The notes below the pieces were generated by a model. It saw nothing but the letters and a program-made list of their open reading frames with translations, ran no database searches and had not been told where the DNA came from. DNA of 12,127 nt from PVC group bacterium (GTDB taxonomy: Bacteria; Auribacterota; Erginobacteria; Erginobacterales; Erginobacteraceae). Below are positions 9,439-12,127 of this stretch, piece by piece. The stretch's first letter is position 1; each line of letters begins with the position of its first letter. Made by a program: the position numbers and the translations under genes. The stretch is from NCBI GenBank assembly GCA_043804695.1, contig JAZDIV010000065.1, forward strand, positions 1 through 12,127. Reading direction: 5' to 3'.

Positions 9439-9494
9439 GTCTGTTCGTGATAGATGTCGTTTGGGAGATTGTGAATATTTATGAACAGATAAAA

Positions 9495-9574
9495 TGGAGT
9501 AATGGAGTGGTGGAGTAATGGGCCCCGTCGGTCCGGCCCGGTCGTTCCCACTACTCCATTACTCCAGTACCCCC
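9495..9574. repeat. Inverted octanucleotide repeat hairpin (TGGAGTRR units facing their reverse complement)
   Basis: TGGAGTAA-TGGAGTGG-TGGAGTAA-TGGG (9495-9522) versus CCCACTACTCCATTACTCCAGTACCCCC (9547-9574). 9503-9522 pairs with 9547-9566 at 17/20 Watson-Crick positions; 24-nt loop. Confidence 0.8.
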
Positions 9575-9617
9575 TTTGGATAGTTGAATGGTATTAGGAA
9601 TATAGAACGTTCTTTCC

Positions 9618-9923
9618 TTACCAGGCGTCATCCGGAGGAAACACGTTCTCGTATTTGATGCTGTAGCGCGGTTCGGCCATCATGTGGGTCACGGTCTCTC
9701 GCCACCGGTTGTAGTGCGCCGTCTCTTTGTGGCGGGCCGGGACGCCCGGATCGCGGTAGGCCTCAAAGAGGATGAACCGGGTGGGATCATCCTGCTGCTG
9801 AATAACATCGAACCGGAGGAAGCCCGGCTCCTGGAGGCTGTGGCGGGCGTTGTCCAGCGTGATTTCCTTGAATTCTTCCACCCTGTCCGCCTTGACGTGA
9901 ATAAAGACGAGTACAATCAGCAT
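9618..9923 (-). CDS. Antibiotic biosynthesis monooxygenase (ABM) / LsrG-like protein
   Basis: V.IHVK, NARHSLQEPG.LRFDV.Q..DDPTRF.L.EAY, HKETAHY..WR..V..MMAEPR; strong RBS AAGGAGG upstream. Confidence 0.9.
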   Translation of the reverse strand: MLIVLVFIHVKADRVEEFKEITLDNARHSLQEPGFLRFDVIQQQDDPTRFILFEAYRDPGVPARHKETAHYNRWRETVTHMMAEPRYSIKYENVFPPDDAW

Positions 9924-10047
9924 GCCACCCTCCTTTTACCTGTCCATAAGACTCTATCTTTTGTCGGGAATCGTGCCGTCATTCTGACCAGTATTTTCAC
10001 CATGTCTTGCCTGTCGTGACCGAAAAAACACCGGCTGCCGGAGTATC

Positions 10048-10105
10048 TTACAACATTTCATGTCCGCCACGCGCTCCGCGCGTCGGCTGAACCCGGTTGG
10101 TGTGT
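10048..10105 (-). other. Integron attC site (58 bp, degenerate) at the 3' end of the cassette gene
   Basis: Minus strand just after TAG: R'' ACACACC (AAC changed to ACC), 5-nt spacer AACCG, L'' GGTTCAGC, stem CC(G)ACGCGC-GGA-GCGCGTGG with a bulged base, degenerate L' GCGGACA, R' GTTGTAA. Confidence 0.72.
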
Positions 10106-10106
10106 G

Positions 10107-10970
10107 CTATTTGTTCTTCTCTACTTTCCATCGAAAGCGTGTTGATAGCCTCCACCCAACAGCCGGGCACTCTTCTTCCATTCCGATCTGCGTCATGACA
10201 CCTTCGGACTTCTCGTCCTCGACCTTCGTGATCCTGACGGACTCGACGATGTTGTCGGGTTTGACCACATGTAATTCCATTCCAGGCAGGAGTCCGTGAT
10301 CCTTTCCCACGTTCAGAGTGACGGGGATATCCTTGAAATTCCAGTCGCAAACACTCGGCCGTGTCGTAGGTAAGCCGACAGCAACAATCCCGGCCGCGAT
10401 CGGCCGCTTCAACAAATAGGCTTGGAACTTCTGTGGGACGCTCGGAAATCCGAAGACGTTCTTCTTCTCATCGCCAGCCCTCAAAAGGTAGCTGCCATGG
10501 GCATATTCACGGGGCTCCGAACCTCCGTTTACGTCATTGCAGAAGCCGACGACGTCGTCTGCCGGGACTAAATATCTTCTCGGTCCCCACGGGATGGGGA
10601 TGAACTCCTCTGCAATTCCTTGGAACCCTTCCCTCTTGTTCTCGAACGTGAAGTCAAGACGTATCCTGCCATTTGCCTCCGAGACAGCGCCGTAGTTCCG
10701 ATCATACAGGCCAAGACAGCCATGCCATTCAAACAGGTATCCGGACTTCGGTGCCAGCAACAAAGACACGTTCACTCCCCGGCCGTCTCCGTGGTAGTAC
10801 TCCCCGGCCCACGCATGATCACCCAGCGTCTTAATCTCTGCCGGTATCTTCTCACGGAGTACTTTGGCCGTATTCTCCGCCTCATCAGAGTATTTAGAGT
10901 CATCAGAACTGCCTGCAAAGGCCGTGAGGGCAATCAACGACAGAATGGAGAGGAGTGGGCATGTTTTCAT
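10107..10970 (-). CDS. Hypothetical exported protein carried as an integron gene cassette
   Basis: GGGAG RBS before ATG 10970; signal peptide (MKTCPLLSILSLIALTAFA|G); ATG lies about 20 nt from the upstream GTT core and the stop abuts attC R''. C-terminal LNVGKDHGLLPGMELHV resembles FlgT-C-like beta domains (tentative). Confidence 0.8.
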   Translation of the reverse strand: MKTCPLLSILSLIALTAFAGSSDDSKYSDEAENTAKVLREKIPAEIKTLGDHAWAGEYYHGDGRGVNVSLLLAPKSGYLFEWHGCLGLYDRNYGAVSEANGRIRLDFTFENKREGFQGIAEEFIPIPWGPRRYLVPADDVVGFCNDVNGGSEPREYAHGSYLLRAGDEKKNVFGFPSVPQKFQAYLLKRPIAAGIVAVGLPTTRPSVCDWNFKDIPVTLNVGKDHGLLPGMELHVVKPDNIVESVRITKVEDEKSEGVMTQIGMEEECPAVGWRLSTRFRWKVEKNK

Positions 10971-10984
10971 CTTCGTCTCCCTGC

Positions 10985-11111
10985 ACACAACGCCGAGCTC
11001 AGCCGCCCCGGTTATAACCAGAAAATATTGGAAGTAATATTACTCCTGACCAATCCAGTCGAGCCAGCAGCCGCAAGGCGGTAAAGGGTCGGCTTAAGCG
11101 TATGGATACTG
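10985..11111 (-). other. Integron attC site (~127 bp) upstream of the cassette gene, R'' disrupted by the IS110 end
   Basis: Minus strand: CAGTATC at the R'' position, 5-nt spacer CATAC, L'' arm GCTTAAGCCGACCC, variable loop, L' arm GGGGCGGCTGAGC, 5-nt spacer TCGGC, R' GTTGTGT. Arms pair with extrahelical bases as in attC. Confidence 0.78.
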
Positions 11112-11254
11112 TTTAAGGCCTCCTCCTTTATCATGCCGATTGGTATGATGAAGAGAAACATTAACCCGCAACCCACGACAAGCCCCGATAAATCGGGGGG
11201 GCCGGGGAAAGGAGGACTTGTCCGGCACGTTTTTTATGACGTATGACGGAGGCC
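11105..11254 (+). ncRNA. Candidate IS110 bridge/seek RNA region
   Basis: Non-coding leader upstream of the IS110 transposase with a 12-bp hairpin (11126-11153), stem GACAAG/CTTGTC (11177-11182/11217-11222) enclosing hairpin CCCCGA-TAAA-TCGGGG, and long-range pair GGCCTCC/GGAGGCC (11117-11123/11248-11254). RNA identity is inferred from position. Confidence 0.45.
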
Positions 11255-11356
11255 ATGTGATTCTACACCCAGCGACATAAATTTTACTGCGGGGTGGATC
11301 TGCATGCAAGGTCAATGTATCTCTGTATCCTAAACCGGGCGGGGAATTTTCGCTAC
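11105..11356 (+). mobile_element. Truncated IS110-family element: left non-coding end plus start of transposase
   Basis: attC similarity stops at 11104/11105 and is followed by a ~150-nt structured leader and an IS110 transposase N-terminus. Both boundaries are inferred; the right one is approximate. Confidence 0.75.
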
Positions 11357-11401
11357 AGACATCAGTCCGGTGTGGGGAAGTTCAGCGAATCGGATAATTG
11401 A
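11255..11401 (+). pseudogene. IS110-family (DEDD) transposase N-terminal fragment, nonsense codon at position 2
   Basis: After GGAGG the frame reads M*FYTQRHKFYCGVDLHARSMYLCILNRAG..., the 'GxDLH...cild..G' first catalytic-Asp motif of IS110 RuvC-like domains. Similarity is lost after ~11350 and the frame stops at 11399-11401. Absent from the ORF track. Confidence 0.82.
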
Positions 11402-11519
11402 GCCTCGATAGGAGTTTGGAGCGGGCATGTCCTGTAGCCAGCGAAGTTTGAGAAATTCACCTGAAAAATGAATAAATCATAGTCTTTTCTCCGGCGATTT
11501 GCGGTAATTGTATAAATAT

Positions 11520-11796
11520 TTATTCATCTTTAATGCCAGCAGGACAATTCGTTCCCTTCATACACCTCCCCATAATTCCTTCTACTTGTTCAAGTTCATT
11601 CCTTTTCAAATTCGGCGGAAATTTTTAGAAACTCTTTTCGTAAATCCCAGGGTATAAAATAGATGATGCCCATACCGCAAAGGAAAAGTATATAAATTGC
11701 TAAAGCTCTCTTTGAAAATCGAAAAACAATAGCAGGAATGCTAAGGAGAGACCAGAGAAGAACTATAAAAACGTAAAATATTAATGCAGCATGGAG
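11520..11796 (-). pseudogene. Frameshifted, start-less remnant of an AT-rich membrane protein gene
   Basis: 11793-11596 reads HAALIFYVFIVLLWSLLSIPAIVFRFSKRALAIYILFLCGMGIIYFIPWDLRKEFLKISAEFEKE* (two hydrophobic helices) with an in-frame TAA upstream. Shifted frames continue KGM / LEQVEGIMGRCMKGTNCP...* to 11520. Confidence 0.5.
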
Positions 11797-11861
11797 TTAA
11801 GCAATGGGGGCAAAGGGGGACTTCGGTGGCGTCTTTACTTAAAAAAGTATCTTGATTGTCG

Positions 11862-12127
11862 TCATCTTCCCCCTTGGAAAATTATAGACCACAGATATTC
11901 GGCTACCCGCCTATGCCCTTCAGGGGAAAGGTGCGTATCACCCCAGATCCCCTCCAGGAAATAGTCGGTTTCATAAATTCCCTTTTCTGATTTGAAGGCC
12001 GGTAGCAAGTCTATAAAAGTGAAGCCGTTCTCCGAGCAAAACTCTTTCAACCTCTCCTGGGGGTAGAGGATTATCTTTTTATCTCCATTTTGATTGAGTG
12101 CTTCAATTTGTGGCCGGGCGGGGACTG
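11862..12127 (-). CDS. SGNH/GDSL hydrolase family protein, C-terminal part (5' end outside window)
   Basis: Frame is open to the window edge (VPARPQIEAL...PQERLKEFCSENGFTFIDLLPAF...GDTHLSPEGHRRVAEYL); D-x-H block V-type motif followed by the typical terminal helix. Confidence 0.8.
   Translation of the reverse strand, partial: VPARPQIEALNQNGDKKIILYPQERLKEFCSENGFTFIDLLPAFKSEKGIYETDYFLEGIWGDTHLSPEGHRRVAEYLWSIIFQGGR

Follow-up and report, generated by a model that had tools for sequence, protein, structure and literature searches.

Remnant of a probable IS1111-type DEDD element in a broken integron attC site

Cassette array and the broken attC site

The window analysed here is a whole contig of 12,127 bp from a genome bin of 155 contigs, and its right-hand part carries a presumed array of integron gene cassettes on the minus strand. 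A cassette open reading frame (ORF) of 287 aa (10107..10970, minus strand, ATG at 10970) has a signal-peptide-like N-terminus and no Pfam family. It starts 14 nt past the R' box of a broken attC site and lies immediately downstream of that site on the cassette strand. This cassette is closed by a probable short attC (10040..10104, minus strand; CACCAAC ... GTTGTAA), which was recognised by eye and folds weakly (z -1.51). Farther along, an ORF with an ABM domain (PF03992; 9618-9923, minus strand) precedes a probable attC-like long hairpin (9478..9612, minus strand), likewise found by eye, with ATTCAAC on its 5' side; its fold has a z of -3.29, and none of 200 shuffles folds as well. On the other side of the broken site lies the 3' part of the gene that precedes it on the cassette strand (11862..12125, minus strand). 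This gene is cut by the contig end and has a weak GDSL-lipase-like match below threshold. The contig stops 1 kb past the element described below, inside the presumed array. No integron integrase above the TIGR02249 cut-off is present in the genome of the window, which is 88% complete (best score 99.6 bits against 265), and the integron context therefore rests on these attC-like sites, with weak fold energies for two of the three (z -1.3 and -1.5).

The broken attC (10985..11104, minus strand) can be read box by box, apart from the R'' box. It comprises R' GTTGTGT (10985-10991), which departs from GTTRRRY at one position (6/7), an R'-side spacer of 5 nt (10992-10996), L' (10997-11009), a variable centre, L'' (11086-11099) and a second 5-nt spacer, CATAC (11100-11104), all on the minus strand. 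The L'' and L' arms pair in a DNA fold of unexceptional energy (z -1.32). The L'-spacer-R' end, GGCGGCTGAGC-TCGGC-GTTGTGT, is akin to that of the dfrB3 attC from plasmid R751, which reads CCCGCTGAGC-TAGAGC-GTTAGTA. In other words, both the palindromic layout of an attC and a cassette ORF directly after R' are present, and R'' is missing by insertion. Its position is occupied on the minus strand by CAGTATC. From 11105 the plus strand reads GATACTG TTTAAGGCCTCC, followed by a leader and then by an ATG at 11255.

Reading of the sequence confirmed that 11105 is the junction between the broken attC and the left end of an element. The first-pass annotation of this DNA had placed a DEDD-transposase element exactly there, at the R'' edge and in the direction opposite to the cassettes, and this placement is borne out both by the sequence and by the relatives of the element. 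The same layout of L arm and spacer also stands to the left of 74 related elements.

The remnant at 11105 and its intact relatives

The left end of the element (11105..11123, plus strand) consists of the 7-nt extension GATACTG and a 12-nt subterminal inverted repeat, TTTAAGGCCTCC, and the same end was found in 81 of 86 related loci. The extension resembles a -10 box and would form half of a predicted promoter at a circle junction. A 5' leader follows at 11124..11254 (plus strand). Next comes a dead stub of a DEDD transposase gene (11255..11351, plus strand), in which an ATG is followed by TGA at codon 2 (11258-11260) and by about 30 codons (FYTQRHKFYCGVDLHARSMYLCILN...), and homology ends near 11351. 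The start of a transposase had been proposed here, and the homology agrees with it (tblastn, 75% identity over 32 aa), but what is left is a stub of about 32 codons only. The peptide quoted earlier, beginning MRF..., is wrong for the window, whose second codon is TGA and not an arginine codon; the intact relative has AGA at this place. Similarly, the predicted match to PF01548 was obtained with a full-length relative (47.7 bits), whereas the stub alone has no Pfam match.

The stub ends at an internal-deletion junction (11352..11360, plus strand), where positions of about 195-1479 of the intact element are missing. As judged from the collinear alignment of 11105-11351 and 11361-11543 to that element, about 1.3 kb was lost, and with it the bulk of the transposase gene and the beginning of the 3' non-coding region. 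The remnant of this region extends over about 11361..11543 (plus strand); its alignment is loose but collinear and becomes strong at 11381-11456, with 90.8% identity to intact-element positions 1512-1587. A guide-like core is kept at 11399-11426 (TGAGCCTCGATAGGAGTTTGGAGCGGGC), and the two RYYYAAC-TGG motifs that lie upstream of it in intact elements have been deleted. The right end, expected at 11544..11557 (plus strand) as a right subterminal repeat with 3 nt and then GTTRRRY, the complement of R'', is degenerate. GTT at 11551-11553 is its sole recognisable trace, and the right-end motif CCTYATARG occurs nowhere in the window. The element continues, into the 3' remnant, beyond the extent given in the first-pass annotation (10985..11356).

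The likeness of this stretch to other elements is not due to chance, since 11105-11351 matches intact elements of the same genus at E 8.8e-41 (positions 1-194, 71% identity) and a second stub in its own genome at E 2.8e-51. The window copy can no longer move. Its lasting effect is only the splitting of one attC, which is therefore disabled.

Intact relatives allow the anatomy of the element to be described. A DNA search of 60 related genomes gave matches in four, and in a genome of the same genus (G001) two copies of a 1706-bp element, 99.4% identical over about 1740 aligned bp, supplied the intact relatives whose collection had been proposed earlier. From left to right, the element comprises the 7-nt GATACTG, the subterminal repeat TTTAAGGCCTCC, a leader of 97 nt in all, a transposase ORF of 347 aa (start MRFYTQRHKFYCGVDLHARSMYLCVID...), a non-coding region of 565 nt, and the right repeat GGAGGCCTTATA with the 3-nt extension AGG. 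In addition to PF01548, the full-length relative matches PF02371 (55.9 bits) and the NCBIfam IS110-family model NF033542 (180 bits). A C-terminal motif, R-L-V-K-C-x-x-x-S-A-G, is invariant in five aligned members of the clade and differs from the IS1111-type GL-P----S(T)G.

A scan of contigs from one genome per species with the five-member protein alignment indicated that at least 612 loci, from the 614 matches listed, encode a relative, and these come from many phyla. The best 80 of the 612 relatives were kept (54-100% identity, many phyla) and were combined with five plasmid copies and the second G001 copy into a set of 86 loci. The left end was recognised in 81 of them, the right end in 65 and both ends in 63, and element lengths range from 1557 to 2221 bp. 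Relatives have subterminal inverted repeats of 10-15 bp, with extensions of 7 nt on the left and 3 nt on the right, and 3' non-coding regions of about 450-1100 nt.

The leader deserves separate attention. In the window it is structured (fold z -3.36), with GGCCUCC of the left repeat pairing with GGAGGCC just before the AUG. It carries an insertion of 33-39 nt compared with copies from the same genus, and a GC hairpin of the host type lies at 11181-11198, with matches elsewhere in the genome. The median leader length is 83 nt among the 80 relatives. An exact complement of the left repeat at the ribosome-binding region measures 13 nt in G001 and reaches at least 8 nt in 24 of 80 loci, compared with 37 of 4000 shuffles. 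This suggests that the leader is better explained as a putative translational control, in which the left repeat would pair with the ribosome-binding region. A role of the leader as a guide RNA was rejected, as the leader is short in relatives, contains indels between close copies and pairs with the ribosome-binding region. An Rfam scan of 9500-12127 at E up to 1 returned no family, only a chance snoRNA match.

Target and guide-like motifs of the relatives

The flanks of related loci define the target of the clade. The search for right ends was repeated with a pattern holding no flank letters, which left 42 loci with at least 7 nt of flank. The first flank base is G in all 42, and GTT follows the right end in 36; GTTRRRY is exact in 14 of the 42 and present with at most one mismatch in 29. 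On the other side, the 74 left flanks share a conserved arm, approximately GTC-G-TG-A-CG, and then a spacer ending in TT, with T at -1 in 64, T at -2 in 56, A at -8 in 57, T at -11 in 57 and C at -15 in 53. Taken together, the conservation of the two flanks gives a rejoined target of L-arm-NNNNN^GTTRRRY, which corresponds to the boundary between R'' and its spacer in attC, read on the opposite strand. This is the common target of the clade, and the flanks of related loci also agree with the earlier expectation that relatives would interrupt their targets where the window copy does and point the same way.

Integron genes are found near some of these relatives. In three of five genomes checked, an integrase above the TIGR02249 cut-off lies 0.35-14 kb from the element: G001 has an intact integrase gene 12.7 kb away, a Bythopirellula bin has one with a single in-frame stop 1.9 kb away, and a Scalinduaceae bin has a decayed one 0.35 kb away. 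The element runs against the expected cassette direction in all three, and the other two of the five genomes have no integrase above the cut-off near the element. Moreover, the longest neighbouring ORFs lie on the strand opposite to the element in 48 of 66 left flanks and 40 of 49 right flanks. When rejoined flanks were given a crude structural attC score, 13 of 56 loci passed, as did 25 of 1120 shuffles (2.2%), and eight of the 56 yielded no candidate; this score is a poor discriminator.

The 3' non-coding region of the relatives contains three recurrent blocks. A RYYYAAC-TGG string lies about 40-55 nt after the stop codon, and a second such string about 240-365 nt from the right end. The third block is a core, TGARCCTC-N-ATARGT-GTT-TGGTGCAG, at about 140-210 nt from the right end. 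The motifs of this region co-vary with the flank and with the right end of the element itself, although all the covariation tests ignore kinship among elements. For instance, the four variable bases of the first RYYYAAC string score 117 against the complement of the right flank, compared with 100.1 (sd 4.1) after permutation, a value reached in 1 of 10,000 permutations (n = 48). The second string gives a marginal result (80 against 70.3, sd 4.8; 292 of 10,000; n = 45). The hexamer of the core is identical to the last 6 nt of the element in 42 of 61 loci, and 337 of 366 hexamer positions match the right end, against 301.9 (sd 3.8) when permuted and with none of 10,000 permutations as high. The next 3 nt of the core equal the first 3 nt of the flank in 57 of 61 (GTT with GTT in 54, GTA with GTA in three), and the three related elements with a GTA core sit at GTAGGTG sites. 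Guides could not be mapped from exact 7-mer matches, of which the 3' region and the target share too few.

Such an arrangement, in which a string complementary to one target strand would stand 5' of another that is identical to this strand, appears to follow the pattern described for IS1111-type seekRNAs. According to PMC11187229, the seekRNA of IS1111-type elements comes from the 3' non-coding region and has short matches to both strands of the target. The termini fit a related scheme: the left tip carries GATACT, TTGACA precedes the right tip by 18 nt, and promoters with -35 and -10 boxes formed at a circle junction are described for both the IS110 and the IS1111 families (PMC11187229). In addition, the right end tends to finish on the same base, T or G, that precedes the left tip, and the first base of the left tip is G, which means that an N-G dinucleotide would be common to target and circle junction.

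By analogy with seekRNA and bridge-RNA elements, a mechanism can be proposed. The element would excise as a circle, in which TTGACA and GATACT, 18 nt apart, would form a promoter, and the transcript from this junction would include the 3' region as well as the transposase gene. An RNA derived from this 3' region would carry the two RYYYAAC-TGG strings, predicted to be complementary to the GTTRRRY strand of the target, and also the core CCTC-N-ATARGT-GTT-TGGTGCAG, which would repeat the last six bases of the element and the first three bases of the target. This RNA may guide the transposase to the R'' edge of attC. Strand exchange would then take place at the N-G dinucleotide common to target and donor, in a manner resembling the core of IS110-family elements, and the insertion would fall exactly between the R'' box and the 5-nt spacer, with the element pointing against the cassette array.

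Family placement, known systems and further copies

The sequence from 11105 to about 11550 is very probably a dead, internally deleted DEDD element of the IS1111 type, putatively RNA-guided and inserted antisense in an attC site. The notion that GATACTG... is simply the start of a neighbouring cassette, or else a repeat that the integron integrase took up at a secondary site, with an incidental likeness to transposases, is barely credible. It could draw on the position of the break, at the G that matches, on the other attC arm, the crossover base of the integrase, and on the fact that several copies in the genome of the window are short pieces without a gene. However, in 63 loci this left end runs on into a complete transposase gene and has a matching right end, inverted repeats are present on both ends, and the missing GTTRRRY box stands directly after the right ends of relatives; the short pieces, moreover, align to the ends of the intact element. 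Very unlikely, too, is an assembly artefact hiding an element that is intact in the real genome. Assemblies typically break at repeats, and the 12-kb window makes up an entire contig of a bin in 155 contigs, but the stub has its own inactivating TGA and a diverged, AT-rich tail that is still collinear with the 3' region, which speaks of long decay rather than of a chimeric join. Additionally, the further stubs of this genome and of the same-genus genome break off at different points, each with unique flanks.

The choice of family required more weighing. The first-pass annotation had assigned the element to the IS110 subgroup on account of its upstream leader, and a corresponding alternative would be an IS621-like lineage with a leader-encoded guide RNA that came to target attC independently. 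The structured leader of 150 nt before the ATG in the window copy (z -3.36) and the remoteness of the transposase from IS4321 are in keeping with this alternative, as is a remark in PMC11187229 that a few elements with subterminal repeats fall in a deep branch classed as IS110. According to PMC11187229 and PMC11208160, the two types differ in the lengths of their ends, in subterminal repeats and in extensions; IS1111-type repeats measure 7-17 bp, usually 11-13, with a left extension of 7 (or 6) nt and a right one of 3 nt. The intact copies carry these published IS1111-type marks: subterminal repeats with 7- and 3-nt extensions, a short left end with a long 3' region, and a DEDD transposase of 347 aa. 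The marks of IS110 proper, a long left end, a short right end and repeats that are absent or of 2-3 bp, were not found in the relatives. It is the 3' region that holds the motifs matching target and donor, and the leader varies by an insertion of 33-39 nt between close copies while its pairing with the ribosome-binding region is conserved. The assignment to the IS110 subgroup is therefore unsupported, and an independent IS110-type lineage is most unlikely. The habit of the IS1111-attC group, insertion near the R'' end and antisense to cassettes, is seen in the window and in the relatives.

The IS1111-attC group, whose members include ISPa21, ISPst6, ISKpn4 and ISPa25 (Tetu & Holmes 2008, Post & Hall 2009), is among the closest known systems. 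It is alike in its antisense insertion near R'' of attC (PMC3001079) and in its IS1111-type layout of subterminal repeats with a 3' non-coding region, which in IS1111-type elements is the source of the seekRNA (PMC11187229). Insertion near the attC 5' end, antisense to cassettes, had already been described for ISPa21, ISPst6 and the IS1111-attC group in PMC3001079, and the suggestion of novelty made earlier could not be upheld. The hosts here, by contrast, belong to environmental phyla, and the likeness is one of target and layout. Elements of the clade are 1.6-1.7 kb long; ISPst6 is about 1.5 kb, as inferred from coordinates in PMC11187229. Searches of 72,556 plasmids by tblastn and blastn, seeded with the clade, found no integron element from Klebsiella or Pseudomonas. 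The plasmid matches came only from marine Gammaproteobacteria, Ca. Manganitrophus and relatives at about 30% identity, some of which are named ISGsu4-like.

Other systems share single features. IS4321/IS5075 have a DEDD transposase of 330-350 aa with PF01548/PF02371 and NF033542, subterminal repeats, and orientation-specific insertion in a structured or repeated target. Their target, however, is the terminal repeats of Tn21-family transposons and differs from that of the clade. The clade transposase is 25% identical to that of IS4321 over 208 aa (residues 97-296), with RLVKCARGSAG in place of GLVPRQYSTGG at the C-terminus, and it finds none of the at least 5000 plasmids bearing IS4321/IS5075, even at E up to 10. 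The IS621/IS110 bridge-RNA elements belong to the same enzyme superfamily and would share the RNA-guided recognition of target and donor, a common core dinucleotide, and a circular intermediate with a junction promoter (PMC11208160, PMC11187229). They differ in carrying the guide RNA in a long left end, with a short right end and repeats of 2-3 bp, whereas the clade has a short left end, a long right end and repeats of 10-15 bp. Group IIC-attC introns are also mobile elements that insert near the attC 5' end in antisense (PMC3001079), but they are retroelements with a ribozyme and a reverse transcriptase, unrelated in sequence and mechanism.

As a finding, the remnant is largely ordinary: an element that is now dead split one attC in a chromosomal cassette array, and such footprints are a known outcome of the invasion of integrons by IS1111-type elements. 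Tetu & Holmes are said to have noted that IS1111-attC elements leave degenerate footprints in chromosomal arrays. A more tentative reading, which we regard as possible though somewhat doubtful, is that the remnant may come from a large, deep-branching and uncatalogued attC-targeting clade, distinct from the ISPa21/ISPst6/ISKpn4 group. Its marks would be the RLVKC...SAG catalytic-finger motif, the GATACT/TTGACA termini and a duplicated RYYYAAC guide, and in more than 12 phyla it might be the chief parasite of environmental integrons, with at least 612 copies in species-representative genomes. If this were true, natural retargeting would be visible in the GTA-core variants at GTAGGTG sites. The wider clade offers hundreds of natural variants of a putatively RNA-guided recombinase that is probably aimed at a structured, weakly conserved target, and attC-targeting elements appear to be common far beyond Pseudomonas and clinical class 1 integrons. 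Environmental surveys, as reported in PMC11089894, list IS1111-group transposases among cassette-associated proteins. The stubs of the clade may also serve as a practical marker of cassette arrays without a nearby integrase.

Further traces of the lineage are scattered through the genome of the window. The assembled contigs contain no intact gene of the lineage, which is extinct in them, and three left-end stubs are present, in the window and on contigs C133 and C154. Six solo right-end pieces of about 50-120 nt lie on C110 (two), C24 (two), C30 and C90. Five of the six end in ...GGCCTTATAAG(G/T); four of these five continue with GTTATG, GTTAGG or GTTATGA and one with GTCAAG. The piece on C90 breaks off inside the repeat. 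The sole intact IS110-family gene of the genome, on C43, is unrelated to the stub. A common truncation point, followed in each case by a similar long hairpin, links the stub on C133 to one in G001, which suggests that the two represent a family of non-autonomous derivatives.

Remnants of the element in its own genome and in a congener

Besides the copy in the window, six solo right ends of the same element family, each approximately 50–120 nt long, occur in the genome bin of the PVC group bacterium. Two of these footprints are located on contig C110 (15705-15825 and 18471-18567) and two on C24 (22923-22993 and 22017-22086), while C30 (16905-16953) and C90 (21652-21726) carry one each. The full terminal repeat is retained in five of the six, and in four of those five it is immediately followed by GTTATG or GTTAGG.

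Left-end stubs represent another form of partial copy. One is present in the same bin, on contig C133 (locus L002, 1506-1760), and another lies on the reverse strand of contig C18 in G001, a genome of the same genus that also contains intact copies (locus L024). Both stubs are cut at the identical codon, after ...GVDLHAR, and in each of them a similar perfect hairpin of about 40 nt comes next; in G001, one such stub-hairpin unit runs on into a right end. These units look like a MITE-like, non-autonomous derivative of the element. On either side of the C133 stub, the opposite strand carries a pair of small open reading frames that overlap (780-1293 and 1768-2510 of L002); judged by their layout alone, these look like toxin–antitoxin cassettes.

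Leader hairpin and variants of the 3' core

The leader of the element contains a GC hairpin, CCCCGATAAATCGGGG(GG), at positions 11181-11198 of the window, and exact matches of 17–18 nt to it recur elsewhere in the same genome, on seven or more further contigs. The leader may have acquired, or may imitate, a host motif.

In three related elements (L065, L078 and L091), the guide-like core motif of the 3' non-coding region reads GTA, not GTT, and their insertion sites adjoin GTAGGTG or GTATTTG rather than GTTRRRY. These elements may represent natural retargeting.

Clade members in other hosts

Among the best 80 of at least 612 relatives, two copies (L039 and L040) lie less than 4 kb apart and in the same orientation on one Acidimicrobiia contig (16846-24661). 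Another from this set (L056), with 60% identity, comes from a contig of 2.8 kb that was assigned to a Candidatus Heimdallarchaeota bin; either misbinning or transfer into an archaeal host could account for this. On a Vibrio campbellii plasmid (L026, 1068-3544), a clade member immediately adjoins an IS4 element and a further IS110-family gene that differs from its own, and in Pseudoalteromonas the 3' region of the clade member is interrupted by an IS3 element.
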